64,000 nt of DNA. It comes from Mobula birostris. Taxonomy: Eukaryota. Below, one piece after another: positions 5,191 through 33,369 of the stretch (the stretch's first letter is position 1; each line of letters opens with the position of its first letter). Made by a program: the position numbers and the translations under genes. The notes below the pieces were generated by a model, which made no database searches, was not told the DNA's origin, and worked only from the letters and a program-made list of their open reading frames with translations. Location: the NCBI RefSeq assembly GCF_030028105.1, contig NC_092385.1, positions 36,732,774 through 36,796,773 on the forward strand. The letters run 5' to 3'.

Positions 5191-5600
5191 GTGTAGGCTT
5201 AATTATATCCTGTTTCCTCTCTCAACATCTCCTTTCCCCAATCTTTCTTATCTTTTTGACACCAAGTCACAGAGTCCTCCTTCAATTAGTTTACTCACAG
5301 CTTTTTCCCCGATATTCTCCTCCCTGCTGTCAAGATTTTGTTTTCGCATATCCATCCCACATTTTGCTATTTTTCCCCATTCCCTCTCCAAAGTGATACT
5401 TCTTTCCAGTAAATTTCACTCATCACCCCTTTGGAATATCTTCTCCTGTTTTCTCTCACAATGAAGGTTATCACTTCACTCCCTGCTACTTTCTATCTTT
5501 GCTTAACAATATTTTTTCTCTTTTTGTCCCCTCCATAGCATTCCCTGCCGTTCTCCATTCTGCTCCTTGCCACACCCCAACCTAATCAATCTGATATGGT

Positions 5601-5801
5601 AACACACATCAAAGTTGCTGGTGAACGCAGCAGGCCAGGCAGCATCTGTAGGAAGAGGTGCAGTTGACGTTTCACGAAGGGTCTCGGCCTGAAACGTCGA
5701 CTGCACCTCTTCCTACAGATGCTGCCTGGCCTGCTGCGTTCACCAGCAACTTTGATGTGTGTTGCTTGAATTTCCAGCATCTGCAGAATTCTTGTTGTTT
5801 G
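5601..5801. mobile_element. PLE-derived fold-back mini-element with collapsed hammerhead core
   Basis: Near-perfect ~70-bp inverted arms (5601-5672 vs 5691-5763) plus a ~38-nt tail on the right; perfect 14-bp TSD caatctgatatggt at 5587-5600 and 5802-5815. Confidence 0.88.
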
Positions 5802-7684
5802 CAATCTGATATGGTTCTGCCTTGCTCACTCTTGTACTAGGCTATCCCTAAGCATCCCTCACTGAGAACTCCCTCTGCAGCTTGCTGTACATGTCCATCA
5901 AGTTGGGTGTTTGTAGGTCAGGGGTTGGAGGAAAACTGATCCTAAAAATAATAATGAGATTGTGCCACTTAGTTCAACAGGACACTCGAATCTTTGGCCT
6001 TCCAGTTTCAGAAAAATCCCTGCACCATCCCCTCGTACACATAAATGCATTTTATTCCAAACGTTGCAGGAGCATACACAGAAAATTATGTCAGCATATA
6101 TTTGGGCAAACTTGCAGTTTATTTTTAAATTGTATGCCTTTATTAATGCAAGATGTCAGCTAAAAAAACGTATTTTAAAATAGATTCAGCATAATACTAC
6201 AATGACATTTCATTAAATTTATAGCGAGTGTTAGAGCTATAAATACATCAGCATGTTAAATTTATTCTACTGCCTTAGAACGCAGCTTATTTTTGCAAAT
6301 TTCCACCTTAATATTGACCTCAGGAGATTACTGTGATTACTTTGAGGCTACAAAATTAGAAATGTCTAGCACCATTCAAAGTCTGTTAGAAAGATTGTGG
6401 CATTTGAAGGAAATTACTTATGTGAAATACTAATCTGCAAAAAGCATATCCTTTCTGCCCTTCTAAAATTTGTTTGTCATAGATTGATAGAGCAATATGG
6501 CATGAATGCTGGCCCTTTGGCCCAATGGGTCCATGCCAGCCTTGGGTCCACTCAGTTAAAGCCAATTTTTGTAAAAGGGCCGACAAGTACAAAAAAAAAG
6601 AAGAAATTGTCTTCTTTATTCCTAATGGATGGAAAAGGTTCAGGCTTAAGTTTTAATTAGAAATATAATTATTTGGCGGATGATCAGATTCTCTGGGGCA
6701 TACAGATTGGCCCGTTTTGGTGTAGTGATTGATTGCAGTTCAGAAATAAATTCATCATGAGGGATTATTTTTTAATTGGCTTTTGACAATAAAAGTTGTG
6801 TTATGAATAAACATAGTAAAATACATTTTGTTTGAAGATCATAGTAGGTATTTACTAATCAGGGATATTCACTCCTTGAGTTAATTTGAAAAAACATCCT
6901 TGATTTGGGCAATGGTGGTAAGGCTAGCAGTTACTGCCCATACTTGTTTGTCACTGAGAGACAAGAAACTGGATTGAAAATGAACAGCATTTTCTCAATC
7001 CAGTTAGAGTCCAATGGAGACTGCTGGAGGAATAGCACGTTTCTGTTGTGTCTAATTACCTTACTATGGAGCCTTCCAGATGCCACAGTGACAATGTCAG
7101 CTGGTATCAGTCTGCACTCCCCACCACTGGTCATTGCATGGAGTCTAAGGCTGTCAGTTTTGCAATGATCCCTACTGGCAACCCACATTGTGATAATTGA
7201 TTGGACTATGCAGCGTGCGAATTGTGGTTGCAGTTCACACTAAAAATATCCATTTCTTTGTTGGGGTTATCTGACTCCTACCTTACTAGGGGGTGAAGTA
7301 CCGGTCCTGTGAATCAGTTTAGACTGAACCTACTGAAAGCAGGTGCTTGATATTTTAGAATTACCTCTATGATTGATTGATGTCGCCAGTGTGCACATCA
7401 TTGGTAATTCTTCTGATCATTTAAAAAAAAATTGCTGTCAACTCTGTCATTGTGCCTAGCAGGCAAGATTCCTGAGTTGCGAGGGTTAATGGGTGACTTG
7501 ACATTAGATTTTGTATAGTTCTAGTAAAGCACCAGTTTAGCGCTAGTAAAAGATCTGTGGCATTTCCCTAGGCTCATCTGTCTTCCTCTTTACCCTTTCC
7601 TTTCTTTGGCTTCAGCATGCTTACTTTGGATCTGAACTCCACATTTCTGTCTTTTCCTTGAAGAAACATATCATGAACATATTA

Positions 7685-8390
7685 TAGAGCCATAGAAACA
7701 GGCCCTTTGGCCTATCCAGTCCATGCCGAAATGTGCACCACGGACCGGTTTAATATTGACAATATTCTTGCGGACCGGCCAACGGGGGTGGGGGGGTGTG
7801 TGGGGGTGGAGAGCGTGTTCAAGTTCAACAGTGCGTGACAGGGAATGAGGAAAGGTGCAGCTGACTCATAGTGTTTCATATTGCCAAATCATATTATTTC
7901 CTCATGGCCCGGTGGCGCATGCTTTGTGGCCCAGTACCGGTCCGTAGCCGGTGGTTGGGGACCACTGCTTTAGACCACCTGCTGGAACATAGCCCTGCAT
8001 ACCCCTCCCATCCATGTACCTACTGAAACTTCTCTTAAATGTTGCAGTCGAACCTGCTTCCATCACCTCTACTGGCAGCTTGTTCTACACTTGCACCACC
8101 ATATAAGTAAAGAAGTTTACCTCTCAAATTCCCCTTGTGTATTCACCTTCCACCCTTAACCTATAACTTCTAGTTCTAATCTCACCCAAACTCAGTAGAA
8201 AAGGTCTGCTTGCATTTGCCTGATCTAAACCCCCCTCATGATTTTGTCCCCCTCTATGAAATCTCTCCTCATTCTCCTACACTCTGGAATGAAGTCCTAA
8301 CCTATTCAACTTTATCCTGTAACTCAAGTTCTTATGAAGTATCTTGTGAAGTTTGCCGTTTGCCTTTGAACATCGGCAACATTTTGAGAA
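7685..8390 (-). mobile_element. CR1-type LINE 3' fragment interrupted by a hAT MITE
   Basis: Reverse complement of CR1 3' UTR and RT C-terminus (catagaaacaggccctttggcc...; taacttctagttcta...). Confidence 0.7.
7735..7967. mobile_element. hAT-Charlie-like MITE, left end missing
   Basis: Ends ggttggggaccactg (reverse complement CAGTGGTCCCCAACC, a Charlie-type TIR) followed by ctttagac, resembling the nTCTAGAn target; repeated ggaccgg/ccggt subterminal motifs. Confidence 0.7.
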
Positions 8391-10260
8391 CATTTTTAAC
8401 TATGCTCTCTGGAAGATGATAAACATATAAAATTGGGATAGGGTCCTACTTACTGTGTCCCTGTAGCCCATTTTGATTGACTACAGCCATAAATTATGAG
8501 TAGCTGGAACATAAACTAGGAATGCTCCTCTAGCTGATTGATCTCTGATTGTGGGGACCCATTAGCTATATCTGTCTGAGATTTGAGAAATGGTATAATG
8601 GTGGCTTCCGTTTAGCGACTGCATAAAAAGTCAAGGGAGGCTTACAATGGTAAGTTTTTAAATGACATTTATTGAGGGCCATTTTCAGGAGAGCTGGTCT
8701 GTTTTCCTCCATTTGTTCTCTCATTCCGATCTACTGACATTTTTGCTTGTGACCCAAGGTGGGTTTCCTTTTATTCTTTCAATTTTAATGGCCATTTTTG
8801 TTTAGAATGTTGATTATTGAGATTGGTGTGTTAAAATTAGCAAATCTATGATTCTAGATAGCTGGTCTTTTGTTACGTTATGTTCCTTCTTGGAATTAAT
8901 TTGAGCCCTATATACTGTATATAATTCCAGATTGACGTCATGTTTGTCAGAATAGAGCAGTAACCAGGTTTGTACAGCTTTGGCAACAGATGTGTTACTG
9001 AAATTAACATCTGTTCTGTGTCAGTGGTATCATAACCAGGCAGTAGCACATAATTGACAAAAGTTAGTGTAGATTTCCGATATGCTGGTGACCTGCTGTT
9101 TTGTTTATTTAACAACTCGAGAGCAATGCATTTCCATTCATTCCGTGTGTGCCTGGGAACATCTCAAATTATTGTAAAATGATCATTGCTCCAGAATACA
9201 ATTTAAGGCACGTTTTAAATTATAAATTTCAATTTACATTGAACTTATTGCAGCTTTTAAACTTTATAACTTCGAGCTTTAGCTTAAGAAACTTAGTAAT
9301 CAAGATTTAAATGTTCTGTTCAAAATTTTGGGCTTCAACAGATATTTTCACAATTTTCTGATGTTAAGCTTCCAATATGATCAGTTACCACTGAGATGGT
9401 AAAATAGTTTACAACGGAGGAATGATGATTCTGCCTATATATCGAGTCAGGTGTTCATATCACTTGGGCCCTCTCAGTCATTAACGTATTTTTCTATTCC
9501 TATTCTCGAATGATGCAGTATGATTTCAATAATGTCAGAGTTATTTGTCTTCGCCATGTTTGGTAGTAATGTGATCGAGGCTGAGACAAACAAGGAGCAG
9601 ACCCAAGCCACTTGGATCTTTGATCTTGCTCCATCACTAACTGAGATTGTGACTGATCTAACATTCCAACTAGTCAATATGGAAGTTTCACTTTTATTAG
9701 ATTTATTAGTTAACTACTGTACTTAACAATGTTGCATCGGTAATACTATGTATTAATATCAGCAAACATATTGGAATACTTTGCGATACTATGATCACAG
9801 AAAGGTCCAGAAAGAGCTCATTTGGCCCTTCATACCTCTGGTGGCCCTTCAGGAATTCTGTTATGTTAGACCCATCTTTTCCCATAAGTTAATGAATATT
9901 TCCCCTCATGTTGAGTTTTATTTAAGGGAATGATATGAATATTGATCTAATTTGCTCTGGCTTGACTGTTTTTTTATAGTTAAATAATGTTTTGATGAGT
10001 GAAATCTATTTGACTTTCTTAACACGACTGACAACTGTGCATATTCTAATGTAGATCTGATCTGTGGCTTCAGTCATTTGTCATCAACTGGGATTTGTGT
10101 GTGTGTATGTGTGATTGTTGAGGGCAGAAATCAGCTTAAAGTTACCAGAACGCGCATTGTTTAACTGCAGATTTCAGCTTTCAAGTTTTAGTCAATAGTG
10201 TGAGTTGCTAGCACATTCAGTGAGCTACATTCTCAAGTTGATAAGCATATTTCTGTCTCA

Positions 10261-10315
10261 TCTGTTGTTTTCTTCTAACGGAAGCCTGTTTTCTCCATTA
10301 TTGGTTTCATCACAG
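10261..10315 (+). promoter_or_regulatory. 3' splice site of MITF exon 1B1b (branch point, pyrimidine tract, AG)
   Basis: TTCTAAC branch-point consensus at 10273-10279, pyrimidine-rich sequence, CAG at 10313-10315. Confidence 0.8.
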
Positions 10316-10565
10316 CAATTCATCAGAGCAGCAAGGATCATCTAAACCCCCGTTAACCTCCTCCAATATGACATCACGAATACTGCTACGGCAGCAGCTC
10401 ATGCGTGAGCAAATGCAGGAGCAGGAGCGACGAGAACAGCAGCAACAGCAGCAGGCAGCACAGTTCATTCAGCAGCGAGTGCCAGTCAGCCAGACACAGG
10501 CCATCAACGTCAGTGTCCCCACCAACCTGCCCACAAATACTCAGGTGCCAATGGAAGTCCTCAAG
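10316..10565 (+). CDS. MITF: MITF internal coding exon 1B1b (common N-terminal exon of non-M isoforms), phase 2 in / phase 0 out
   Basis: Acceptor catcacag|C at 10315/10316 and donor AAG|gtacag at 10565/10566; 250 nt. Translates (S)NSSEQQGSSKPPLTSSNMTSRILLRQQLMREQMQEQERREQQQQQQAAQFIQQRVPVSQTQAINVSVPTNLPTNTQVPMEVLK, colinear without gaps with human MITF SSAEHPGASKPPISSSSMTSRILLRQQLMREQMQEQERREQQQKLQAAQFMQQRVPVSQTPAINVSVPTTLPSATQVPMEVLK (recalled). Closer to MITF than to TFEB/TFE3. Internal ATG at 10368. Confidence 0.96.
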
Positions 10566-13500
10566 GTACAGCTTAATTTTCATAATCTCTATTTCTTATC
10601 AGACTGCGCTAACAAATCAATATTTTTGAACAAATGTTCAGTAAGACAATGAAGAGAGAATGATATTCTACCTAATCTAGCTGAGCCATACGTGCAGCAG
10701 GAAAATTACATGTGACATAAATATTTTAATGTTTATGGATATTTTAACATAATGCTCAGAAGCTTGCAGCGGTTTTTTTTCTGGACAGCATTATAAAATA
10801 AAAGATTTACTGGTTTGGAAAACAGAAATAAACTAAATTTGATTTACAAACAATGTCATGTTGATTTTAAAGTTTTTATGTTTTTCAGAGGTTTTTTCTT
10901 GAACATTTTTTCAGTTGAACAAGTTTAAGGTTTTCATAGAAACTTCTTTGCTATTTAAAACATGCAGAACTTTTAACTCTTTGCCAGTGGTCACATATAA
11001 TCCAATTTCCTCCAATGAGTTGATGTCTTCTAACAGCCTTGATTCTTCATCAGACTAGCAAGTGCAGAAGCTTTATTAGTATCTCCTGCTTAACGAGACT
11101 ATTGTACATACTTTTCTAATTACTACATGATCTTGATATGGGAGCATTTTGAATTTTCCTGTGATGAATCTATATTTAGTGTCTGACTCCCATTATTGTT
11201 TTCCTTTATATCATTTAATAAAGGAAAAAATAAAACTGGAACAATTAGATCAATACACAGTGTTAGAATAATAGTTGTGTTATTTATCTGTTCTTCCCAT
11301 CAGGCCTAGGAACAATTTTGAATTTGCTGAAGCTCATATAAATAATTGAAACATGCAGTCTCTGTACAATACTTATTTGGCATTAAGTGTTTATTGTCTT
11401 TGAAATTACATAGTTTAATTTGATATACAGTTATTTTTTAATTATATAAAATGCCATCTTTAATTGGTAAGACTTTGCCTTGTTGTCATTGCTAAGCACA
11501 CTACATTTATTTACATTATTGAAAATAAGGTGTAATTTGCACTATTTGAAAACATCTCAGATACCAATAAGAGTCGAAGAAGCTTCACATGTTCTGAACT
11601 TTGTATTACTATGTTCCCCATTCTTTCCTTGGAATAGCAAGTTCTTATAAATAATGCAGGTTTATATAAAATATGCAATATTCAATCTTCTCAAACAAAG
11701 ATGCCATTCTTTCTATTTGAAACAAAAATACTGAGACTTTTTGGAAATCGGTTGCCAGTACAGTGTTCATTGTGAGTAGTAAGGCTTTATCTTTTTATTA
11801 GAAAGGAGTTGTAATCATTTTACTTGTATCATAAGAACATAAATGAAATCAAAATGAGGTATTTTGGAGTGCATGTGTAAAAGGTTGCAAGAAAAAAACT
11901 TCTATTAAGACGTACACAATTGTGGTGTAGATCTGAATAATACCAGGAATGGACTGTGGACTTCTTTCATGTCTCAGATGATGCATGACAATCCACTTAG
12001 AAAAAGATGGTTACAGGAGTGTTGAATTGTTGTTGTTCGTGTTGGAAGAAGGCACTAAAGTTGCCTCTGGATCAAGGCAGAAGTCAAGAGTTTCTGATTA
12101 GTTTCCAATATTCCTTTCTGGAGGCAACTTATGAAAATATTTACAAAAGACAAGAACATGGTGCAGACCACAGCTTCTCACACTTATAGTCCAGACTTGC
12201 ATAGATATTTGTTACTTTGGCAAGATGTCAGAGGGCATCTCAAATGCCTGGAAATGTATTGCATTTAGTGGTGTGAACAACAAAAAATATGCAGGTTGAT
12301 CAAAATTTCTCCTCAGAGTTAGAGTCTAAGAACACATTGGAATGTTGGGTAATTGGATTAATTTCTAAGAAAGTTTCCTTTCATATTGGGGTAGTGTATG
12401 ACATAGTGTGGTTAAATCAAAAGGGTTGAGAAGATGTGTGTACTTTTCAAATCAGTGGATTCCAAACAAAATATTGATGTCTTATTTTCACTGAGCAAGG
12501 CTTATTTTATTGGGATTCTTTTTACCCTCCCAACAATTTCTATCAGCTACATTCTCTTGTTTTGTTCTTACATATGCCTAATATAAAGTACTGATCTGAC
12601 TGCATCCAGGTGATGGCTTATTAAGGTGTATGTCCTTGCTAGTTAGTTGGCCGAATCTTTGCTGAGCCAAATCCAGCTCACTGGTCACTTATCTTTTTGA
12701 GCAGTGACAGCTGTTACTGATTTGGACAAGACCCTCATTAATAGAAGCCAGTTGTGGTGCTGTAATGTTGCTGTTAATACCAGGTAGCGAGCAAGAGGAG
12801 ATATCTTGTTATGTTAAAAGCCTTGCAAAGAGTAGTAGAATCATTGTTCTGGTGCCCACAGGCTTCACCTGCTCTAACTACCCTTTTCAAACACAAAATG
12901 GTTCTGATCCATTCTCTGTGTGCTGTCTTCATGCACATGAACTGCTTATAGTCTCTGCAATTTCCTTAGTTCTTTCTGTAATCTATAGCTGGTTAGATTC
13001 ACAGAATTATCTTTTGGAGTGCAAATATGGCTCTGTAATTAAAATCAACCAAGGTGGCCCAAAGAGGTGCCAAGGATGCAAAAACTGCCTCCTGCTGGAA
13101 GGATCAATCGTACATTTCCTCTCTCATTCAAAATCGGGTTTGAAATATTTCTTTTAATAATTTGGTGTTTACAGCAATGTTGCTGCTCCTGAAATTTAAA
13201 CGAATTGTTAGTATTGTGACATTAGTGCTGAAAATTTTAAGGACCTTCATTTCCTTAGACTTGCTGCAAGTATAAAGATTAAATCTGTATACACTATATG
13301 CTTTCAAGCTTTTCTTCAAAATGGAATGGACAAATGGACACGTGAATAAATTCACAAATGTGTCAAAATAATCTTTGTTTCTTTTTCCCTTTTTTAAACA
13401 TCATGCAATTTCTTTTTATCAAAGCCCACTTGATAAACTCTGATTTTGAAGTATTTGTGTGTTTCGTATTGGAATATTCCAATAAAGAATATTATTTATT

Positions 13501-13721
13501 TTGTCTGTGGATCAGAAAATATGATCAGTTATATTACTTTCATATATTAGAATGTTTTTAACTATTCTTTCACTGATACTGATAGGTATTGATATTCATT
13601 CTTCCATGGCATAGCATTTCTATTCCAGTCTGAAGATTCATTCATCTGTGATCTGCTTATTTACATCTTGCCAGGAAGTCTTGAAGAGCTACTTTTTGTC
13701 TTTCAAAGCCCTTTGAAATCC

Positions 13722-14094
13722 AAGGCAACACACACAAAATGCTGGAAGAACTCTGCAGGTCATGCAGTATCTATGGAAATAAATAAACAGTCCATGTTTC
13801 GGGCAGAGACCCTTCTTCAGGACTGAAAGGAAGGGGGAAGATGCCAGAATAAATAGGTGGGGGCGAGGGGGAGGAGGCTAGCTAGAAGGTGATAGGTTCT
13901 AGCCAGCCCCCTTCCCCTCTCCCCACCTTTTTATTTTGGTGTATTCCCCCTTCCTTTCCAATCCAGAAGGCCCTCGGCCTGAAACGTCATCTTGTTCATT
14001 CATTTCCGTAGATGCTGCCTGACCTGCTGAGTTCCTCCAGCATTTTGTGTGTGTAGCTTTGGATTTCCAGCCTCTACAGACGTTCTTGTGTTTA
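13722..14094. mobile_element. PLE-derived fold-back element with two inverted hammerhead-like motifs
   Basis: Inverted arms of ~165 bp and tail on the right; 13-bp TSD ccctttgaaatcc at 13709-13721 and 14095-14107. Minus-strand motif cagtc-CTGAAGA-agggtctctgccc-GAAACATG-gactg at 13788-13825. Confidence 0.88.
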
Positions 14095-14770
14095 CCCTTT
14101 GAAATCCTGACTTTTCTCAGGTGTTAATCTAATGTACTAGAGAAGTAGGAGTGGTGTGGCAGTGAAATGATGTAACTCATTCCTGCAGTTTTAGTAATTT
14201 GAGAAATTAGTAATAGCTAGCTTTAATAGCAAATCTAATTGAAATTATAAAGCACTTAAAACAATGTTCAGCCTGAGGTGTTCATGAGATACTTGACAAC
14301 ACATAAGCCAGTATTATGCCAATTTGAATCACCCCATGTGATACTAAGAAATGTTTGAAAGCACCCATATGAAAGTAACAATGGATCCAGCAAACATTTC
14401 GGATGCAGTGCTGAAATCTGCAGTCCAGAATAGTTTCCATTTCCAATAAAGCTTTTCCAGAACAGCTACAACATGGGTAGAAATCTAAATTCTGTATACA
14501 TATTTTACCAGTGTGGTCGACCACACTGTTTCATACGTTATTCTGTTCTGCTGCAAACTGAAATTAAATGAAAATACTGCACATGGTGGTTTAGTCTGCA
14601 GTCAATTTCAGTGGTGGCAAGAAGTCTAATGGCTATAAACTTAATTGCTTAACTGTGCCAGTTTTCTAGCTGGTGAAGGGTGGAGGGACTAGGGCCATGT
14701 GCTCTGGTGTAAACAGAATGGTGCTGGGGAGGTAGAGGGAAGGGTGTCAGGTAGGGAAGGAGATTTGGAG

Positions 14771-15631
14771 CTTTCCACAGGGATTGCTCCCTATGCGACT
14801 CCCTTGTCCATTTGTCCCTCCCCACTGTCTTCCCTCCTGGTACTTATCATTGTAAGCAGAACAGGTGCTGCATTTGCCCCTACACCTGCTCCCTCACTAC
14901 CATTCAGGGCCCCAAGCAATCCTTCCAAGTGAGGCAACACTTCACCTGTGAGTCTGTTGGAGTCATATACTGTGTGCGGTGCTCCTGGTGTGGCCTCTTG
15001 TATATCAGTGAGACCTAACATAGATTAGGAGACTGCTTCGCCGAGCATCTATGCTCCGTCCACCAGAACAAGCGGGATCTCCCAGTGGCCATCCACTTTC
15101 CATTCCTAATCTGATATGTCCATCTATGGCCTCCCTTACTGTCGGGATAAGGCCACACTTAGGTTGGAGGAACAATACCTTATATTCTGTTTGGGTAGCC
15201 TCCAACCTGATGGTATGAACATACATTTCTGAAACTTCCCATAATGCCTTCACCCCTTCACCATTTCCCATTCCTTTGTCCCTCTCTCATGTTATCTCCT
15301 TGCCTGCCCATCACCTCCCTCTGGTGCTCCTCCACTCCTTCCCCCTTTTTTTCATTTTTCCATGCCTTCTGTTTCTTTCATCAATCAGCTTCCTAGCTCT
15401 TTGCTTCATCCCGTCCCCTCCCAGTTTTACCCATCGCCTGGCGTTTCTCTCTCTCCTCCCAGCACCTTTGAAATCTACTTCTCAGCTTTTTTTCTTCAGT
15501 CCCGCAGAAGGGTTTTGGTCCGAAACGTCGACTGTACTTTTTTCCATAGATGCTGCCTGGCCTGCTGAGTTCCTGCAGCATTTTGTGTGTGTTGTTTGGA
15601 CTTCCAGCATCTGCAGATTTTCTCTTGTTTG
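14771..15631 (+). mobile_element. 5'-truncated Penelope-like element (Neptune-type): Cys linker, GIY-YIG endonuclease remnant, 3' UTR, hammerhead relic
   Basis: ORF 14812: GTYHCKQNRCCICPY...HFTCESVGVIYCVRCSWCGLLYISET (GIY-YIG), continuing to LEEQYLIFCLGSLQPDGMN; motif at 15497-15534; probable TSD agatttggag (14761-14770) / agacttggag (15632-15641). Confidence 0.88.
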
Positions 15632-16720
15632 AGACTTGGAGTGGAATCCTTCCTAAAGTTGGTGTGGGAGGTGATCGGAATTAGAGGGTTTATTCATTCA
15701 GTTGGGATCTGGTTGTGTGCTTCTTGGGGCTGTGGGGATGAGGATCAGGACGTGGGGGGCCAACTTCTTCTGGTTGAGGTAGGGTGTCGAAAGAGGGATT
15801 GTGCCAAATATTGCAATGAAGGTAAAAATTAATGTTTAGGTGAGCACTGGGGTGATTGGAATTTAAGAGCCCTTGTAGCCCTTAGCCTTGAGGGATCCCA
15901 GGGTTGTGCAGGAGGGGCAGGGGGATTGTTGTCCAGGATACTTAAGGAAAGATTTAGATACTGTTATAAAATATAATGGTTTGTTTCTTCAATTGTTGGA
16001 TTAGCCATCTGGTGAAACACTCCCAAAGTGCTATGTTTTGCAAGTTCCAGATTTTTAGATCCATTGATGATCTCCCTTGTTTTTACCTACATGTGAAAGG
16101 GCATGTGGGACATCGGTTGCCTTCCCATGTGAAAGACTGCTCCCTCACTATTAGAGGACAAAAGCAATAGAGTTGGATTTGAATCCACATCCTTTTGCAG
16201 TTGATGATAACATTGCCTAGATTAGAAATCAGTAGTGATGAACACTTGCACTAAAATGTAGACTGGAAGATTAATTATCTGTTTGGTCTGATTGCTTGAT
16301 AATTCCATATTGATTAATTGCAGTGTTTTAAAATGTTTCTTATTTAAATCCATCTAATGCCCTATCTGCAATCCCCTCCTTTGTATTGTTGTTTCTGAAT
16401 AGTAGTGACAATTTGATTTACATTTTCAGGGGAGTGAAAATGAAAGGAAATAGTTTGATGTTCAGTGTATTCCCCATTCTCTGCAAACAAAAGGAATTCT
16501 TGCCATTTGTTTGTTCAATTTGTTTTTCATCTAACATCAAACACAGCAGGGAATGAGTCTTTACTCTCTGCAAGCTTGGTGACGTCAGTTAATGAAACAT
16601 CCTTGAATGTTCCTTCATAATCCAGAAGGGGAATAATTATGGCCTTTATCCCTGACCAAAAATATGCTTCCCAGTCCTGGTCAACAGATTACATTGCAGA
16701 GAGTTTATGTTGCTATCCTA

Positions 16721-17212
16721 CACTCAGTGGCCATTTTATTAGTTTTCTATTGACCACTGAGTGTATGCTGCTGTAGTCTATCCCTTTTAAGGTTTGATGC
16801 ATTGTGCATTCAGAGATGCTCTTCTGCACTCCACTGTTGTAACGTGTGGATATTTGAGTTACTGTCAGCTTGAATGAGTGTGGCCATTCTCCTCAGGGCT
16901 CTCTCATTAACAAGGCATTCTGCACTCACTGGATGTTTTTCTTTGCACAGTTCTCTGCAAACTCTAGAGACTGTTGTGGGTGAAAAAATCCCGGGAGATG
17001 AGCAATTTCTGAGATACTCAAACCACCCCGTCTGGCACTAACAATCATTCCATGGTCAAAGCCACTTAGATCACATTTTTTCTCCATTCTGATGTTTGGT
17101 CAGAACAACAACTGAACTTCTTGACAATATCTATATGCTTTCATGCATTGAGTTGCTGCCACTTAGATATTTGCATTAACAATGCACCTAAGATTGAGAT
17201 ACATTGAGTATA
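16721..17212 (-). mobile_element. Non-autonomous Tc1-like DNA transposon
   Basis: TA followed by TIR cactcagtggccattttattag; body similar to 37637-38743; degenerate right TIR (cattgagtata) hit by a PLE insertion. Confidence 0.75.
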
Positions 17213-17213
17213 T

Positions 17214-17440
17214 CCAATCACAAACAAAAGAAAATCTACAGATGCTGGAAGTCCAAGCAGCACACAAAAATACAGGAGGAACTTGGGCCAGGCAGCATCT
17301 ATGGAAAAGAGTATGGTCGATGTTTCAGGCCGAGACCCTTCAGAAGACCTGCTGAAGGATCTTGGCCCGAAACGTCGACTGTACTCTTTTCCATAGATGT
17401 TGCTTGACCTGCTGAGTTCCTCCAGCATTTTGTGTGTGTT
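17214..17440. mobile_element. PLE-derived fold-back mini-element (tail on left)
   Basis: Inverted arms meet at ~17348; + motif CTGCTGA-aggatcttggccc-GAAACGTC-gactg at 17349-17381; 14-bp repeat tacattgagtatat at 17200-17213 and 17440-17453. Confidence 0.88.
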
Positions 17441-17957
17441 ACATTGAGTATATATTGTGATGTAAAGTAGCCTGTGGGACATTTTCAAGTCCTACTCCTC
17501 CCTCATCTGCAGTGACACAGAGGGTAAAAATAGGCACCATGCAGCAAACTGTCAGAGAAGAAGACCCTTCCTTAGAGCCTTCATGTCTGTTAAGGTTTCA
17601 CCCAAGCATGGGATACAACAAAAACAAATTCAGTGCCTTTCACTCTTTCACACAGAGAAACAGTGAAGCTCTTCGTGAATGTACTTTTATGAGTTTGAGT
17701 TGCAGTATGTTAATTGTAGTTACTAATGATATGCTCCTCAGAGCACAATTTATCTTAAATGCTGAATGAGCATGGAATATATGTCTTAAACAAAGCATCT
17801 CACACTTTAGAGATGGAATGATTTTACGAGATAACTTACTTATAATTTGTTTCATCTGTGTGAATTTATGTCAGGCCTTTGCCATTTGATATATTCAGGA
17901 GGCCAATTGGTGGGTGCATCAGATGCACATGCTCTATTTGAATAATTATGCTAATTT

Positions 17958-20176: not shown

Positions 20177-20309
20177 TTCCACAACTCTGCAGATATCTTC
20201 AATGTGGTACACGTGTGCTCAAACGGAAGGACTAGAAGTGTTGGTTAAATCTGCACTCTGTGGGGTAATGCTAAGTTACCAACATTATCAATATACAGCA
20301 ATTCAGAAA

Positions 20310-20578: not shown

Positions 20579-20848
20579 CCTAAGCTAGTTCTCCATCACC
20601 TTCTCCAGCTACCTGGGCATGTGTAATTAAGGACGAGCTTTGCCTGTGACACCCACATACTTGAATGAAGTGTTGTTGTACAACAGATTGCTGTTATGCC
20701 ATCAGAATCCTTTTGTGAGCTAAGGTGGAAGTCGTCTGAGCAATTGTACCTTGCCAAATGGCTGGGTCTGAAAGTAAAATGGATCTGGTCACCCTGTAAA
20801 GCATCAGGTCCAGGCTCTGCACAAGTCCACACACCCTGATACTTCACA

Positions 20849-21037
20849 AACATGAGGAAATCTACAGATGCTGGAATTTCAAGCAACATGCATAAAAGTT
20901 GCTGGTGAACGCAGCAGGCCAGGCAGCATCTCTAGGAAAAGGTACAGTCCAAGGGGTATAAGATCACGAAGGATTTCAGGCGGAGACTCTTCGTCGACTG
21001 TACCTCTTCCTAGAGATGCTGCCTGGCCTGCTGCGTT
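20849..21037. mobile_element. PLE-derived fold-back mini-element, same subfamily as 5601-5801
   Basis: Shares diagnostic aaagttgctggtgaacgcagcaggccaggc; arms 20908-20949 / 20996-21037; 16-bp repeat accctgata(c/t)ttcaca at 20833-20848 and 21038-21053. Confidence 0.85.
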
Positions 21038-21226
21038 ACCCTGATATTTCACACTTGTTTTTCAGCTAAGTCTGCCAATACCCCAGTAATGTTACTTACA
21101 CTGCCACCTGAAAATGCTCATCTGAGTTCTGTATGTTAGAAGTAGTTGAAAATCAAGAAGCTGCAATTGCTGGAAATCTGAAATTTAAAAAAAATACAGA
21201 AGTTGCTGTAAGCACTCAACTGGTTA

Positions 21227-21762: not shown

Positions 21763-21844
21763 TAACTAGTCAAGCACATCTACTCAGATGATGGTTAACT
21801 ATTTCTTGTTGCCTGAATTCTGATTGTTTCCCCCATTTATTTTT

Positions 21845-23440: not shown

Positions 23441-23649
23441 CATTCCTGTACTCTATGTATGACCAAAGTACTTTTTCAGTCTTCTGTATTAATTCTGATG
23501 TCTCTATACCATATGTGATTTTCATCAGCAAAAATGGAAGTTAGTGAAGTACACAGATAAAAGATACTGATATAACAGTGAGGATGCTGTCATGATTTAT
23601 CCAACTTTCAAATGTATTTGGACTTAACAACTTAATGGCACAATATGTT

Positions 23650-24355: not shown

Positions 24356-24954
24356 GTTTGTATTGATGATGCTGCATGCTGAAGTGTGGAACATCAGTGA
24401 ACCTCCACATCAAACTTTATACTATCATCAGCTCCCTTCTCTGACATTGAAGAAGGCTGGATGGGTTCTTCTATCAAGAAAGGTTGAACAAGTTGAGATA
24501 CCACTCATCAAGATTGGAGCCACCTGGCCCCTCAAACCTGCTCTGCCACTTAATATGATCATAGCTGATTATCCCTGGCATCAATCTGCCTTCTGTGCCA
24601 GTACGTGAAAGCCCTCAATGTCTTGATCTTTCAAAAGTTTATCAGCCTCTTCTTTAAATATCTCCATGGTTTAGCCTCTGGAATGTTTCTACATGGTGAT
24701 GACTACTCATGGTATTGGAGTATCTCTAAAGATATGTGGATGATGAATAGCATGGATAGTACAGACTGGATACAACATCATTGAAATGTTCAGGCAGCAG
24801 CAAGCTGGCGTGATGCCTGCGCTAAGGGAACTGTGCATGGGCCAATTTCACATTCCAATTCATGAACTCTTTTAGTGTGTGCAGTAGGTATTCTCCAGTT
24901 CAAAACAACTTGCCTCTTCCAAATAACACCTCAAGAACAACTTTATTACATTGG

Positions 24955-25525
24955 AATGAATCAGAATCAGAATCAGGTTTATTATCACCGGCATGTGACG
25001 TGAAATTGTTAACTTAGCAGCAGCAGTTCAATGCCATACATAATCTAGCAGAGAAAAAAAAATAAAATAAAACATAATAATAAATTGACAAATAAATCAA
25101 CTGCATATATTAAATTGACTAAAAAACATGCAAAAACAGAAATACTGTATATTTTTTTTTAAAAAGTGAGGTAGTGTCCAAAGCTTCAATGTCCATTTAG
25201 GAATCGGATGGCAGAGGGGAAGAAGCATCCTGAATCACTGAATGTGTGCCTTCAGGCTTCTGTACCTCCTGCCTGATGGTAACAGTGAGAAAAGGGCATG
25301 CCCTGGGTGCTGGAGGTCCTTAATAATTGATGCTGCATTTCTGAGACACTGCTCCCTAACAATGTCCTGGGTACTTTGTAGGCTAGTACCCAAGATGGAG
25401 CTGACTAGATTTACAACCTTCTGCAGCTTCTTTTGGTCCTGTGCAGTAGCCCCTCCATACCAGACCGTGATGCAGCCTGTCAGAATGCTCTCCAAGGTAC
25501 AACTACAGAAGTTTTTGAGTGTATT
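24955..25525 (-). mobile_element. Rex1/Babar-type LINE 3' portion with (AATCAG)n tail
   Basis: Minus ORF MESILTGCITVWYGG...HPGHALFSLLPSGRRYRSLK; close relative at 54023-54688. Confidence 0.85.
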
Positions 25526-28500
25526 TTTAATTTTTTAAAATTTTACTTCCTGGCGCCTAGGTGCAACTCGAATAGCAGCAGTATAAAGAATGATACAAAG
25601 ATCATAACAACATTGAAACTTAAAAGATAATTAAGTGTATATGAGTTCATATTTTGGAAAGGTCAAATATTTACTCTCACTTTCAATTCTGCTTTCTCAG
25701 CAGCAACAGATAAATAGCTCACAGAAGTAAACCAATTGTAAATTGGTATATTTTACATGTCAAGTTAAATAGAATGCTGCTTCTACTGTTTTTCATAACT
25801 CTAGTGTTGAAAATAACAATATGTTACTATTCTCCTCTTAATACATTTTTAATTTTAGGCTATAATATCCTCATTTTACAATTCCAATCTTATTTTGTAC
25901 AACTTTTCTAGCCAGATAGGAAAACAATTATTTGACATCCAGCTTTCTAAGGCAAAGTAACTTTCACATCCATGGCACAGAAAAGGTGCAACTTCCAGCA
26001 CCGAGTGCACACACCCAAGTAAATTATTCTTATGTGAACTTGATGAGTTAATAGTGGGAGGCAAAAGATAATAACTGGATAGATAAAGGAACAAAATAAT
26101 GCATTAAAACAAGTGTAAATGGAATAGCAGAATCATAATCTAGTGATGCTGTGTACAGGTGGATTGAATGTTGCTGAATGAAAGGCCAGGCCTATCCCTC
26201 AAGAAATTAAAAAGTTAGAAGCAGAAGGGTTGTGAGTCTTTCAGGTATAAAAATAACAAAGGAATTGTAATCTCAAAGTTCAAACTAAATTTATTAAAAA
26301 GGATGTACTGTATGGTAGAGGTGTTGCCATGCCTTCTTTGTAATAGTACTTACATGCTAGTCCCAGGACAGATCATCTGAAATTAAAACACCAAGGAATT
26401 TAAAGTTACTGATGCTCTCTACCTCTGATCCCCTGATGAAGACTGGCTCATGGACCAGTCTTTCAAGCCAATTCTTTTACTGAGATTTCAGACAGTTATA
26501 AATATTCTTTTTATTTCTGCCTGAACAGTTTTTTTTGCAGAACAACAGTTCAGTTAGAGGTACTGATGTGAGTCTGAAATGTTAGGTCTGTCTCTTCTCT
26601 CTACAGATGTTGCTAATCAACTGAGTGTGTCCATCATTTATTTGAATTAATGAACATTATACCTTGATACTTCCAAATTTCCTTTCACTTTTCCTTTTCA
26701 ACAGTTCTTCACCATTTATACAATGCAGAGTGAAGCTTTAAAACATTACAAAATTAGTAGTGACAGATCATGGAAATTCTTGTCATTCATTCTAGGATTT
26801 ACAAATTCTTGATTGAAATTTCTTTTTAGCCATAAGACAGAAACAAAATCTGATCAGTGCTCTCTGGATAGCAGTTTTAATGGGTATGTCTGTGACAAGA
26901 TTAGCAGATAGCCACTAGTGTTATATAAGAGTCAAAATTAGATTAAGGGTACCAGGCTGAGCTTTTAAACCCTAAAAGTGAAAACATTTATACTGGATGA
27001 TTCTGTTTTTAATGTGATTGGTGCTTGAATTAGCTAAATGACCTGTAACCTCTCAAGAATAAGTAAGGGATAATTTTAGGGATCAAGACAAAGCCTCCCA
27101 GAGATTTAGTGCACACCACACACTAATACATGAAGGAATGCCGATAATTAGCTTTGCTGCTTTCATTCTTTTGGTTGTTTTTTTTTAAATTCACTGCTTT
27201 GAAATAATGCCTACAGGTTCATTATCCACAGGTTTAAAGTCTGAACTGTTGCTGTCAAACAAAAGCATATTGTATGATGAATGGTAGTTGCCATGTCCTG
27301 TGTGCAATGTGCAGGCATGAACAAACATAGCAGTGCATTTCCTTTGTTTATTGAGGTACTGTCTAGTATTATTTACTATGAATCATTTGAAATTCAAGGA
27401 GTTAAATTTGGTGAGTTGAGCACCCAGGTTATTAGATTGAATGTTGTCCATTACCGTGTATAAATTTGACAAGCAGTTCCATCTAGTTGTATTACAGCAT
27501 TAAGCTTATAAAATGGGATCTCAAGCTGTTTCATCATTTTAATTGAAGGAATTGCGTTTATCGTGTGAACATTTTTCAGTAAAACTCAAAAAGATTCATG
27601 ATCAACTAACCCTTGGCAGGTGATCCTCATGTTCTTGACTATGTTTTGATTAAATCCTTTTTAAATGGGGAGGAAACAACTTAACTTGAACACTTAGCTC
27701 AGTTAAGTAATGGAAAACAAGTCTATTTATTTTAATGACTGTGGTTGCATTTAAAGTACATATTTTTTTGAAATAATGTTGAATTCTTCATCTTTCAGCG
27801 CATGTATGCTTAACACCGTATGATAGTTTGATTCACAAACCCACAGGGTTCCACATTATTGTGCTGGATTAGTTGGCTTCAGTAGAGCAATGTTGTCTGT
27901 GGAAAAGATGAAGAAAATTTGTTGAGGATTTCCTTAACTGATTAGTAACAGCTGAGGTTTGCTGAAAAAATATGTATGTGTGGGAATCAAGTGAGGAATA
28001 TTTCAACTTCAGCTGTGATGATCTTATGGTCAAGTAGTCTGCTTGCGTTTTAGGTTTGCATGTCAGCTGTGGAAAATTGGACTAAGTTCATGAAGATTGT
28101 TTGCACTTATGGAATTCTACCTCTTGACTGATGAGCGTCAGAAGCAAAAGACAAGCTCTTAATTCTCGGCAAATTACTGTTGTGGTTGCTTAGGAAGCAG
28201 CATATTATATGATGAAGCAAAGACAGAGAGATAATTCTATTTAAACATATTTAAATTATCTGGGAACAGTTAATATTTGCAAATTTAATAGGTTTTTGTG
28301 AAAAATGTTAAAGCTTATTATTTTAGTACAGGTAGATTGATCATAAAATGTGAACCAGTGAAAGATTCAATTGTACTTCAGATTAAATGGTATTTGTTTC
28401 TGGGCCAGCTTTTATTTTGATGATTTTTGTTATCATATGTGATTACTTTTTGAGAACATGGTTTTATTGGACCAAGAATTCAGTGCAACTTACACCAATC

Positions 28501-28759
28501 ATCTACTGTCATCCAGCATCTCCAATGCTATTTCCAACACAGTGTAATGGTTTAGTTGTCAGCTGAACATTTTCAGAGCGTTTCTCAGCATGGTATGCTA
28601 TGGAAATTCAAAATGTGAATCAATAGTTTATAGGAATCAATTTTACAACAGCCAACTAGCTTTTAAGAACTAGACTAATGATAAGTACGGAAATACTATA
28701 ATAGTCTTCAAAATCAGAAATTCTGGAAGAGGCAAACTGAGCTTGACGTTCAATATGAT

Positions 28760-29700
28760 CATCCCTCAGAAGCTGGTGGGTAACTGCCCTCATTAGGTAC
28801 CAACACCTCTATAACTGGATCCTGGACTACTTAACAGAAAGGCCCCAATCAGTCTATGTTGGGAGATGCATCTCTATCTCCATCACGCTGAGCACTGGCA
28901 CTCCCCAGTGCTACATCCTCAACCCCCGCTTTTCATACTGCTGATGCACAACTGCACTGCTAGATCCACTTCAAACCATTCATGTCTCCTTCATGGAGAC
29001 AGATAGGAGCATCAAGTCTCTGGGAATGCACATAATGGACAATCACACCTCTTCTGTTTACATCATCTCTTTAGGCACAAAAGCACAACAGCATCTCCAT
29101 TTCCTGAGGAGCCTGAGGAAAGTGAGGCATCCCCCACCCCACCATCCTAACAATTTTTTTTTACACAGGAGCACCATGCAGAAAGTCCTGACCAGCTGCA
29201 TCAGTCTAGTACAGGAATTCCTAGGCATCTGACTGTAAGACCCTTCAAAGGATTGCAAGGGTTGCTGGGGATCATTGGGGTCTCCCTTCCACCTATCCAA
29301 AATATTTATCTGGAGTGCTGTGAATGCAGGGCGCTTAGATTTCTCATGATCCTTCCTATCCATCCAATAATCTCTTTGACCCCTACCATCGAGCAGGAGG
29401 TACTGTAGCATTAGGACAAAAACAGTTAAGATGGGCAACAGCTTCTTCCCCCAGGCAGAACTCCATGCCAGCACCCAGGTCTCCTCATGTATAAAGCACC
29501 AGTAGAATTATACTCTTTATTTTTTAACTTGTGTCTTAAATGCACCTTATTATTTATTAATTTATTTGTGGTAATATTGCTTTATGTGTTATGTGTATGA
29601 GTTGTATGTACTGTGTAGTGCACCGTGCTCCAGAGGAATGTTGTTTCATTTGGCGGTATACATGTGTACAGTTGAATGACAGCTGAACTTGAATTTGAAA
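28760..29700 (+). mobile_element. Rex1/Babar-type LINE, internally deleted RT and 3' UTR
   Basis: [13 protein letters not shown]...LSTGTPQ motifs, KAQQHLHFLRSL, ends aacttgaatttgaa. Confidence 0.8.
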
Positions 29701-31281
29701 TCTTTGCTCTCAGTATAAGGTGCAGTTAAAAAAACTAACATGTATCTTCATCAGTGAATGATTTAATGCAACAAGGCCTGTGAATTTTACCACATGAAGG
29801 TCTGTGATGAAGATTAAAACTATTTTGAGGAATCACACGACAGTGAGGGAAAAATGTTTTTTCAGCTGTAAATGTAAGGAGAATTTAGATAGTCTCTGAA
29901 GATAGCAACTGTGTGCATAGATTCTGTACCAAGTGAATTACTCAATTTTACCCCAACAAGGAATTAATTCAATGTCCTTTAGAATGTAATTGGGAATTAC
30001 AAAGGTAAGCTAAGCATTTGTATTTTACTACTGAGGAGAACTGCTGTGTTTGTTGACATAAACACTGAAGTAGTTTACATCCCACCTACAACATCTCCCA
30101 GGCTTCCCTTTGCCCAGTTTATCTCGTATATTGGTGAAAACACAGAGCAAAAGCTGATCATCAATGACTGAACCTTTCTCTGGATCTGGCTTGACTCAGG
30201 CCACACCTTGCACTGACTAACCCTGACCAATTCCCACGGATACACTAACCTGTAGCAGCCCGCTGGAACAACATGCATTATGGGCCTTGCTGCCTAATCT
30301 CAAGACTGTGGATATTGAAACTAGTTCTACAGGAAAGGGTGTTTTCAAATGTTTTGGAATGTCTCTCATATTTTGAAACAATCAAAAACTATTGAAATTG
30401 CTTTAGATATTCAAAAAAGTTCTAGCTTTATTTAGAAAACTTAAATTTACTTATAAACACATCTACCACATTTTAAAAACATCAACGTTAGTTGAAGGTA
30501 AAAAAGAAAACACTTGTCTGTTCAGTCTGGTAAACCATCCTTTTCAGATTAGTTGAGAGTTGTGACATGCACCATCCATGACTGGTATGAAGTTGAAAGG
30601 CTGGATATAAATTGCATCCACCCCCTCAGCTTGGCACAACTAAGTTATGCCCTGAACATAGTGCTGAATCTAGCAGTGGAGGAGCTTCCTTGCCTTCTGC
30701 GCAGTGCAAGTCAGGGGTATGAACCAGCACACTACTGTTCTCTATGAAACAGTTAGCTGAAGAGGAACCATTTCAGATCATTATACAGCCAAGTGTAAGA
30801 TGACATAGTGTTATTTATTGTGAGTTGAGTTATTCCTTGAATAGTGGCTTAATCTGTGAATAAATGTTATGGGTATTAGAATTAACAGTCTGCTGATTTA
30901 CATCTAAACATTTCTTTTTCGGATTAGAAAATCATAGCAAATGATTTAGCAGTATCCAAAAATTGCAGTCAACAGTCTGAAGTGCTATATCCTACAGTTT
31001 TATTACGCTGCATTTTACTTGACAATAGCATGTATGTAGAAAATGCTGGGTTACCTACCACACAGATATTTTTTTCATTGTGGAGCTCAATGTGCAGTCA
31101 TCTGTAGTAAAGTCCACTGTATTCTGAAACTTTTCCACTGGAGTTTGGGAAGTTCAATGTTTACAGAATTTTTGATTGTAGATAACCAGAATATAGAAGT
31201 AATAGTAAAGTGTTCTTCAAGAACAAGAAGCAAATTAATAATGTGTTCTGCCATTTTCAGAACCCATTACACAATAGAATT

Positions 31282-31501
31282 ATAAACATAAGAGATTCTG
31301 CAACGCTGGAAATCCAGAGCAGCCCACACAAAGTGTTTGAGGGATTCAGCAGGTCAGGCAGCATCTATAGAGAAGAGTAAACAGTCAACATTTTCTGCTG
31401 AGTTCCTTCATCATGAAGGATCTCAGCCCAACGTTTTGACTATTTATTCCTCTGCGTAGGTGCTGCCTGACTTGCTGAGTTCCTCCAGCATTTTGTGTGT
31501 G
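31282..31501. mobile_element. PLE-derived fold-back mini-element (tail on left)
   Basis: Arms meet at ccttcatca|tgaagg (~31413), within the CTGATGA core; perfect 15-bp repeat ttacacaatagaatt at 31267-31281 and 31502-31516. Confidence 0.88.
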
Positions 31502-33369
31502 TTACACAATAGAATTCTGTGGCTTCATTTTGTATAAAAATATAATTAACGCATTATGTACATTATAACATTATATCTATTGAATGATCAATTAAGTAGT
31601 TTCATATCATGACTCTTTATTTGAGTACTTTTATTTGTACTTGGTCCTGTTGAACAATTTATAGCTGTCGTAGTCACAAAGAAAATGCAGAAGCAATTGA
31701 CATTTTGCACTGGGTTTTACCAGATGGCAATTTTATTGCAATCATTATGACTGATTAAGTTGGTTTCTTAATGCATTTTATTTTGCTAAACATAACATTA
31801 CACATTCTGAGATGGTTGTCATTTTCTGAAAAGTCTTTTACCTGTAGCATTGTGAACCACCTGGCTGATAAACCAGTGATATATCAGTTCTGAAAATGGA
31901 TATCTTTGGTTTTACATGCACATAAAGTGTACAGATGGATAAGTATTTTACGTTTGGTGTCAGTGTAACCTGACAGGGGTTCTGAAACTAAAAGGAATTG
32001 CAAACAGCAAAAACGAACTACAATAGCGTCATGCATTTGTATTCAGAAACTGGAAAGGGAAGAATGAGCAGCTTACAGCATTCGCAAAGCTTTAAATGTG
32101 GCTAGGTATTAATTGGCAATTTAATGAATAAGATGATCCAATTTGAATATCACAACAAGGAATTAATCTTATTCATTAGAGAAAACAACACTGATTTCAA
32201 AATATCAGTGTCAAAATTGTTCCAGCTCAGTATTCAAAAACATTCTTCTTTTGGTTTGCTCAGAAAGAAAAATACTAATGTAGATTTTCTGCTGGCTGGC
32301 TGGATTCCTTTGCAAAACATTATAGGATAAACCATGTTGGACCACAGAATGTTTAAGCATTTTGAATTTTGCATTCAGTAGATAAGAGTAGACCAGATAT
32401 TCTCCAATGTTTACCCCATGGCTGTATTCTCTGTAGGCCATTTTTGGGAAGATATAGAAGGCTAAATTTTGGCAGAGGTGCAAAATTCACTGTGGTGGAT
32501 CGGCCATTTACTTAGCAGCCACTAACATCAAGGGAAAGCAAAATTATGTGCAACATTTAGAGCAGAAGCATAAAAAATGAAACAATGTAAGCCATTCAGC
32601 ATCTCAGCATATCAATACGTATGATACATGACCAATTCATCATCACTTGCTTTATGTTTTTTTTAAATTACATTGCACTCCAAAAGATCTTTGGACTTTT
32701 CAGTTCCCCGAAAATCATTTTTATTTTACCTTCAAGCTACGCTTTGAAGTTTGCAAGTCTCCTTGTTTTCTGGTGACAGGAAGATTTTTTTTTATATCAT
32801 TTGACCTCATCCAACTTGGCATGAAGGTTTCTGCCTGGGGTTTCTCAGGATCTATAAACATGGAGTGAAACCGTCCAGTGTTTGAGCTACTATGGACTTT
32901 TCTTTTTACTGATACTGAATTGCCAGAATGTACAATGATGTTCACATACTGTAGGTCTGTTTATTCTTTACCCTACTGTTACAGAAACAGTACTACTGCA
33001 AGCACATATTTGGTTAGTTCTCTAGAACTTGACCTCAATGAACTGGATAAACCTCCAGTAGATTTTTTATTTCAGTTTATGCCTCAAAAAACTTCTATTT
33101 GTACAGTTGAAACAGCATACTGTTTTTTTAAATTTGATAATAAATTATCTATTATACAGGGTTCTTTTATGCATAAAAAGACAAACTGATGTGATATATT
33201 TTTCATTGGATTGTTCCTACACTACAGATAAATCTTTCATTTTAACTGTATTCTTACCTTGAAATTTCTATTTTCCCTTAAGTTTTCTGACTTTCACCAC
33301 ACTGTAGTTTTCCATTTGTGATTACTGCCCAAGGTATTAATCTTCTCCTCCTATACTGGAACCTAGTAA

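Follow-up and report, generated by a model that had tools for sequence, protein, structure and literature searches.

Fold-back elements in the window

The window analyzed here is a stretch of 64,000 nucleotides of the Mobula birostris genome (RefSeq assembly GCF_030028105.1, contig NC_092385.1, positions 36,732,774 to 36,796,773 of the forward strand). It contains 20 arms of a Penelope-like element (PLE) in all, and several of these 3'-end copies stand head to head within a target-site duplication (TSD). The fold-backs (hairpins) thus formed are real, abundant and of a known kind, and they do not constitute a new class of element. The new part is a measured, sequence-fixed zone in the element's hammerhead ribozyme (HHR) motif where copying stops, together with signs of a single template. 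Positions in the element are counted from the cleavage site predicted for the HHR (0); on this scale the motif spans -33 to +4 and the copies end 3' either at a 'core' end (~+66) or at a 'tail' end (~+103). The PLE features that the argument needs are listed below in window coordinates.

5587-5600, plus strand: left TSD of fold-back e1 (14 bp, exact; right copy at 5802-5815)
5601-5673, minus strand: core arm of e1, a tailless PLE 3' end whose 5' truncation at -8/-9 falls within the HHR
5674-5801, plus strand: tail arm of e1, beginning at -25 in the HHR core and ending with the ~37-nt tail
13722-14094, no strand assigned: a longer fold-back of this type in a 13-bp TSD, pivoting outside the HHR at about -105/-96
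14902-15632, plus strand: long 5'-truncated copy of the parent PLE, with a broken GIY-YIG end, a ~280-nt pyrimidine-rich untranslated region (UTR), the HHR (~15498-15535), core and tail
17200-17453, no strand assigned: fold-back e2, element 17214-17439 in a 14-bp TSD (17200-17213 and 17440-17453); tail arm 17214-17343 on the minus strand, to -25; core arm 17345-17439 on the plus strand, from -32
20833-21053, no strand assigned: fold-back e3, element 20849-21037 in a 16-bp TSD with one mismatch; tail arm 20849-20949 on the minus strand, to 0; core arm 20992-21037 on the plus strand, stopping at -4
31267-31516, no strand assigned: fold-back e4, element 31282-31501 in a 15-bp TSD (31267-31281 and 31502-31516); tail arm on the minus strand, to -27; core arm on the plus strand, from -23; the junction lies on a 6-nt palindrome (31411-31416)
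59841-60874, no strand assigned: fold-back of this type, ~1 kb long, in a 15-bp TSD, with both arms extending past -300
~61108-61322, no strand assigned: e5, an old, diverged short fold-back with approximate ends

A preliminary description of the window had reported e1 to e4 as young elements, and their TSDs (14, 14, 16 with one mismatch, and 15 bp) and junctions are present in the sequence. In e1, for example, the arms meet at 5673|5674 and the predicted cleavage site lies at 5698|5699. The description also placed every junction in the HHR. This holds for e1 to e4, but the window has two more TSD-bounded fold-backs (13722-14094 and 59841-60874) that pivot far upstream, and the regularity was partly a matter of selection because the set described was the short subset. 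Arm ends 5 to 35 nt upstream of the cleavage site were likewise found in 6 of the 8 arms of e1 to e4 and not in the other 2. The older fifth element exists as a diverged fold-back, for which no TSD above chance was found.

The centre of e3 (20950-20991) has no simple junction. Its 42 nt are complex and combine ~16 foreign nucleotides with sense and antisense pieces of the HHR, and the core arm of this element is short at its 3' end too. Complex centres with repeated sense or antisense pieces of the HHR region were seen in the window (20950-20991) and in L210, L227 and L234; they look as though copying had halted and restarted repeatedly near the HHR. An older, diverged inverted PLE-like pair occupies 51060-52050, with a second fold-back of the same family nested at ~51328-51664 whose left arm lacks the core part.

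The parent element and its hammerhead motif

Long copies run upstream from the HHR through the ~280-nt pyrimidine-rich UTR into the end of an endonuclease (EN) domain of the GIY-YIG type. A 2.6-kb arm in L122 carries what we take to be reverse transcriptase (RT) motifs, including DKG, followed by a Cys-rich linker and a GIY-YIG region ending at the same UTR. Against Pfam, the GIY-YIG region scored slightly below the cutoff (E 2e-4; 22.0 versus 22.6 bits), and no RT family matched the two RT pieces. The family nonetheless has the attributes of EN-containing (EN+) PLEs: an RT followed at the C terminus by a GIY-YIG endonuclease (in the L122 arm, and as the broken GIY-YIG end in the window), inverted 5'-truncated copies, partial tandems, TSDs of 11-18 bp and a tail of ~37 nt on one arm only. 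The Cys-rich linker of L122 is a Zn-finger-like motif between RT and EN. Such a motif marks Neptune elements and is present in Nematis as well (PMC8557442), and by this linker the parent PLE looks Neptune- or Nematis-like.

The motif itself has the sequence of a minimal type I HHR. A descriptor search of the 1.764-Mb sample described below returned 31 hits, every one at this PLE family, and none in the reversed decoy; no second HHR-bearing family was found there for comparison. The catalytic boxes are present together with stems I and II, and 94% of the stem cells are paired compared to 12-44% when the stems are slid along the sequence. Covariation among 13 copies was not above that of shuffles. 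An Rfam scan of the window listed no hammerhead family among its 28 matches at E values up to 1, just sub-threshold microRNA (miRNA) hairpins, among them a match of e1 to a plant miRNA.

Partial tandems show what lies beyond the tail. In a young one (L220:2-1500, minus strand), the 3' end is followed by the start of an open reading frame (ORF) of ~490 codons with an internal ~200-nt duplication; the ORF begins ~35 nt past the tail. Two short units also stand in tandem in L091:8250-8620, starting at -30 and -32, the first of which continues ~60 nt beyond the tail into the ORF start.

Abundance and anatomy of the fold-backs

We used an unselected sample of sixteen 100-kb blocks at round coordinates plus 50 kb on each side of the window (1.764 Mb including the window). 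Scanned with a profile of the region 3' of the cleavage site, this sample gave 336 arms and the reversed decoy none. One 100-kb block (L071-L080, G000:C12:70.0-70.1 Mb; 54% GC) has no arms, compared to 12-38 in every other block. Neighboring arms that face outward (minus/plus) lay within 115 nt of each other in 38 of 104 cases, whereas none of the 100 pairs in the opposite orientation lay within 125 nt. Leaving the window aside, the 33 short pairs in 1.7 Mb correspond to ~78,000 per genome (54,000-109,000, Poisson error alone), and the arms to ~750,000.

Pairs spaced by less than 4 kb with a TSD score of at least 11, a score reached by 4 of 400 random pairings, gave 28 TSD-bounded fold-backs. 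We sorted their arms as short or long by hand, drawing in part on a split estimator that is coarse (it misplaced the centre of the window element at ~13.7 kb) and served solely for this purpose. Fourteen pairs were short and 14 long, with TSDs of 11-18 bp (mode 14), so that about half of the TSD-bounded fold-backs pivot far upstream of the HHR. Sizes form a continuum, with near-perfect fold-backs of up to 3.3 kb. The tail is on exactly one arm in all 28 unselected pairs and in 30 of 30 relatives of e1, a set made of its 30 best matches and biased to similar length and centre. Some second arms measure just 20-45 nt (tail only or a piece of core) inside one TSD, as in C3a 15916 (L042), C8a 3143 (L061) and C16a 29577 (L083), and fold-backs of this type are missed by the pair counts.

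The hairpins are the shortest form of the published PLE insertion, in which an inverted 5'-truncated copy and a ~37-nt tail on one arm lie within a TSD. The head-to-head anatomy given in the preliminary description was already in the literature, and its suggestion of a route to hairpin retroelements was overstated, as nothing indicates that the hairpins move again. Its view that the elements are independent integrations was borne out. All 30 relatives of e1 have distinct centres and their own flanks. Furthermore, the one junction common to L011, L017 and L018 has tail and core arms swapped in L011 relative to the other two; it was therefore made more than once.

A zone where copying stops

We mapped where arms stop in two sets. 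The young-subfamily block set had 46 arms with exact mapping (3 window arms removed, 3 positions adjusted by eye). The other set comprised 49 copies picked by their 3' end alone, with the query removed, 2 positions adjusted and one contributing source sampled at 20 of 40 places. Single-reference and permissive-gap mapping were dropped because alignments of this kind may over-extend or be interrupted at the diverged pyrimidine tract; TSD-based measures and a leave-one-out control, in which 66 of 70 known-long arms extended past -100, were used instead. A genome search with the core alone as query gave no matches.

In the block set, stops were counted in 2/46 arms at -17 to +4, 16/44 at -34 to -18, 3/28 at -74 to -35 and 8/25 at -294 to -75. 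The 3'-selected set gave 3/47, 9/44, 5/35 and 8/30 in the same bins. The pooled stop rate at -34 to -18, a bin drawn after inspecting the block data, was 7.4, 5.6 and 12.3 times that of -17 to +4, -74 to -35 and -294 to -75, respectively. With an interval fixed a priori (-33 to +4 versus the next 38 nt), the blocks gave 18/46 versus 3/28 (p 0.009). Pair spacing, an alignment-free measure, is clumped as well: 25 pairs were spaced by 57-111 nt, 4 by 112-166 nt and none by 167-276 nt (25 versus 4, p 1e-4), and a spacing of ~106 nt is expected if both arms held the whole HHR. The excess of stops in the HHR that the preliminary description had proposed is seen in the unselected blocks, in the spacing test and in the unpaired arms described below.

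Some results weigh against a uniform hotspot. In the 3'-selected set the a priori comparison gave 11/47 versus 6/36 (p 0.59). Tail arms ended in the peak in 23 of 66 cases in the remaining sets but in just 2 of 29 in the youngest subset (L201-L230, without the query; p 0.005). Among the short partner arms of the same subset, 6 of 8 end at -29 to -36. In the youngest subset the hotspot is weak, and its strength varies between subfamilies.

Arms without a partner stop in the same zone. A TSD was found within 300 nt for 26 of 228 unpaired arms, and 13 of these 26 fell in one 20-nt bin, compared to 1 of 638 null trials of this alignment-free test. The 13 comprise eleven plain single-arm copies that begin around -19 to -33, a tiny fold-back and a doubtful case. 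TSD-bounded single-arm copies halt at the same place; the hotspot therefore belongs to the copying of this PLE in general and is not, as had been proposed, a feature of fold-backs. We found no paper describing a truncation hotspot at a PLE hammerhead or minimal fold-back copies, in a search that left out subscription journals and Repbase and Dfam entries.

Tail and core arms end at the same positions though their starts are 37 nt apart, which points to a place rather than a length and rules out length-limited (abortive) synthesis. Stops avoid the cleavage site, and the lack of a peak at 0 rules out run-off at a cleaved HHR. If the hammerhead folds as a monomer, an RT moving 3' to 5' would be expected to halt where stems I and II have their 3' foot (+5 and -8). 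The stops lie instead in the 5' half of the motif or at its 5' edge, so that the ribozyme fold itself, which the preliminary description had offered as the stall signal, counts as one candidate at most.

Signs of a single template

Among the 30 relatives of e1, non-majority variants are common to both arms of an element 29 times compared to 9.7 expected (maximum of 18 in 2000 shuffles), and 6 of the 30 have near-private variants in both arms. Gene conversion between arms could also yield shared variants and counts against reading them as a template signature. Arm lengths are coupled in the 28 TSD pairs, with 14 short-short, 5 mixed and 9 long-long pairs versus 9.7, 13.6 and 4.7 expected (permutation p 0.0007; p 0.009 when the window events are left out). 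In the mixed pairs, the tail arm is the short one in 5 of 5. Shared variants and coupled lengths point to priming from both target strands on a single uncleaved RNA, and the length pattern fits two primers on one RNA with the core-primed copy ahead.

We also examined how the arms are joined. Of 29 junctions, 19 are without extra bases and overlap by 0-3 nt in every case, and 10 have extra bases. An overlap of at least 2 nt was found in 7 of the 19, compared to 17% expected (p 0.03). Element e4 and two others pivot on short palindromes.

Comparison with known systems

The canonical EN+ PLE unit has an inverted 5'-truncated copy, an optional 30-40 nt tail at one end and a TSD (PMC3846280; PMC8557442), and head-to-head inverted pseudo-long terminal repeats with tail and TSD have been described, with self-priming proposed (PMC3846280). 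The family studied here resembles this unit in its head-to-head arrangement, one-arm tail, TSD, variable 5' truncation and partial tandems (L220). It differs in having a large class without any body (two 3' ends only), in stops that were measured and cluster in the 5' half of the HHR, and in TSDs of 11-18 bp rather than the 8-10 bp of the rotifer EN+ PLE examples in these sources.

A related in vitro system exists for the Poseidon element PAc of Anolis. PAc cuts and extends both strands from two start sites bounding the tail, HHR cleavage is dispensable and uncleaved RNA is the main substrate (Frangieh 2024, PMC11167929). Two putative start sites bounding the tail, the HHR just upstream of them and a putatively uncleaved template recur in the present family, which differs in looking Neptune-like (Cys-rich linker) and in having an ORF that starts after the tail and not in the HHR. 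The main text of the PAc paper reports neither a termination hotspot nor head-to-head joining; its Fig. S2 may bear on stops. The uncleaved template proposed in the preliminary description agrees both with the avoidance of position 0 and with this substrate preference. Double priming, also proposed there, is likely and fits the tail/core rule (28/28 and 30/30) and the published two-start-site, both-strand activity.

Metazoan PLEs carry minimal type I HHRs, which in Schistosoma include opposite-strand pairs 100-700 bp apart and in D. virilis lie at an intron that ends at helix I (PMC4209133). The motif described here shares the CUGANGA and GAAA-C-GUC boxes, the extra base after A9, the palindromic 15.2-16.2 and the lack of stem III. 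Unlike those HHRs, it is recognized from sequence alone, it is often cut by the inversion point and it is incomplete in most hairpins. Non-LTR retrozymes are short non-coding PLE derivatives with a type I HHR, arranged in head-to-tail arrays with complete HHRs (bioRxiv 10.64898/2026.07.22.740005). The hairpins are likewise short, non-coding and PLE-derived; they differ from retrozymes in being head-to-head and junction-unique, with a motif that is usually cut and no indication of mobility.

Both arms of the fold-backs copy the same 3' part of the RNA, hence the palindrome. In L1 twin priming, by comparison, the second target strand primes on the same RNA and microhomology joins the ends, but each piece represents a different part of the RNA.

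A proposed barrier to copying in the 5' half of the hammerhead

The explanation we prefer, and to which we give about an even chance, is that the hairpins are the shortest products of ordinary PLE insertion, in which both cut strands prime one uncleaved RNA and a structural or protein-bound barrier on that RNA lies in the 5' half of the HHR. The observed TSDs suggest that the endonuclease would cut the two strands ~14 nt apart. One strand would start at the tail end (+103) and the other at the core end (+66), as the start sites of the anole element suggest, and starts at these positions would place the tail on exactly one arm. Both copies (cDNAs) would then pass the intact cleavage site and tend to end at -18 to -34, where the stops are observed. 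The two cDNA ends would presumably be joined by end-joining, given the 0-3 nt of microhomology or few extra bases at the junctions. If one strand alone were extended, its cDNA would be joined to the target and give a single-arm copy.

The barrier may be a helix between the purine run at -28 to -18 and the pyrimidine tract just upstream. When -120 to +105 was folded in 15 young and 53 older long copies, -26 to -18 was predicted to pair as the 3' side of a helix at 0.4-0.7 per position (0.2 at one position). The predicted helix would hide the catalytic core and could therefore also keep the template uncut. Other results tell against this part of the account. The HHR region folds no better than shuffles (z -0.15 to +0.95), and the upstream helix is predicted to be weak, at about -2 to -11 kcal/mol in examples, and is missing in some copies. 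Hairpins of equal stability are predicted 3' of the HHR, and the sharp edge at -32 to -34 fits an RNA 5' end equally well.

Alternative explanations

Indeed, the stops could reflect run-off from RNAs that begin at the HHR's 5' edge, through a transcription start at ~-32 or processing at the splice-acceptor-like AG at -32/-31. We regard such run-off as possible but unlikely. Double priming would operate here too: the RT would start internally, and the first copy of the start sites would give HHR-to-tail products trimmed by a few bases at joining. Stops do climb towards -32 and drop past -34, none of 29 relatives of e1 (a length-selected set) has an arm beyond -32, and the coupling of arm lengths would follow. 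In 54 of 68 long copies a pyrimidine tract with an AG forms the -30 boundary, as for the intron of D. virilis, which terminates at helix I (PMC4209133), and the ORF start ~35 nt after the tail in L220 would put the start sites near the 5' end of a transcript. On the other hand, the AG also belongs to stem I of the HHR, so its conservation need not imply splicing; the D. virilis start site is located 46 nt ahead of a 75-nt intron and not at the HHR (PMC2377424). The 17-nt smear of stops is wide for a single RNA end, and long and short copies have the same ORF-side bases after the tail.

Splicing of the template was pursued further. Among 85 endonuclease ends, none was seen to belong to a genomic copy lacking the intron (the 26 that were unmatched or without an HHR within 200 nt were read over the next 90 nt), and a spliced-template model was rejected. 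The public sequence data comprised 22 runs, all of them contigs and 18 presumed to be RNA. Seven distinct runs aligned to L220 gave joints between the endonuclease end and the HHR edge. These joints, all of which leave the intervening sequence unspecified, are no evidence for splicing because their loose ends match the diverged UTRs of other subfamilies; contigs cannot show RNA ends.

Compared to a barrier met by two cDNAs, self-priming is improbable. A single cDNA would snap back after copying the 5' strand of stem II or I, the second arm would be copied from the first, and endonuclease resolution would produce the tail difference, a type of model put forward by Arkhipova 2013 (PMC3846280) and Craig 2021 (PMC8557442). 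It accounts for shared private variants and for stops that follow the self-complementary 5' strands, and one junction (C28a 29332) uses the full 5-nt overlap of stem I. Most junctions, however, are off the stems, and overlaps are 0-3 nt in 19 of 19 insertion-free junctions. Both arms usually reach well into the HHR, either may be the longer by hundreds of bases, and single-arm copies end at the same place.

A bias in joining also has little in its favor as the source of the peak. If cDNAs ended anywhere, two ends in the self-complementary HHR could anneal and be fixed more often, as the excess of overlaps of at least 2 nt (7/19) and the palindromic pivots of e4 and two other elements would suggest. 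Yet single-arm copies, which are joined to unrelated target DNA, peak at the same place; overlaps are short and 10 of 29 junctions have extra bases.

Slightly further down the scale is collapse after insertion, in which long palindromes would lose their centres by deletion between the direct repeats offered by two HHR copies. The youngest subset does have the fewest short copies (2/29 versus 23/66), and the median divergence between arms is 0.15 in short (n 10) and 0.07 in long fold-backs (n 14), a difference that is not significant (p 0.70). But collapse cannot yield single-arm copies with an intact TSD directly at their 5' end, near-perfect fold-backs of up to 3.3 kb persist, and short elements with near-identical arms exist.

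A miniature inverted-repeat transposable element (MITE) or short interspersed element (SINE) family copied as a unit is already largely refuted and barely credible: the copies are many, short, and bounded by inverted ends and TSDs, and among 29 junctions three share one and three another, but all 30 relatives of e1 have different centres, one of the shared junctions is found with swapped arms, and the asymmetric ends, 11-18 bp TSDs, several subfamilies and continuum to 3.3 kb do not match the fixed internal sequence, symmetric terminal inverted repeats and short TSD of a MITE.

The window also holds repeats outside the PLE family. A 76-nt near-perfect inverted repeat at 37632-37707, unrelated to the PLE, has a sub-threshold mir-9256 match and resembles a Tc1/mariner-type miniature element. 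Other dispersed repeat families, which are not PLE 3' ends, occupy 24979-25526, 38006-38671, 54043-54580 and 61971-62427.

Implications for PLE insertion

The barrier account, in which one uncleaved RNA is copied from two primers, bears on how PLEs form their inverted 5' copy and on the role of their weakly active hammerhead. The ~78,000 short fold-backs and many more single arms are a natural read-out of one template, two start sites and a sequence-fixed stop zone. The stop zone gives direct predictions for the existing in vitro system and should be useful to specialists; for annotators, such hairpins are neither MITEs nor miRNA precursors. We tentatively extend this account, in a form that is more doubtful than the account itself, to propose that the HHR region may serve as a checkpoint for the RT rather than mainly as a cleavage site. 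The fold with the upstream splice-acceptor-like pyrimidine tract would keep the ribozyme off in the unspliced template and halt a dimeric RT that copies a single RNA from two primers, and the fold-backs and single-arm copies would be the genomic footprint of the PLE insertion complex.

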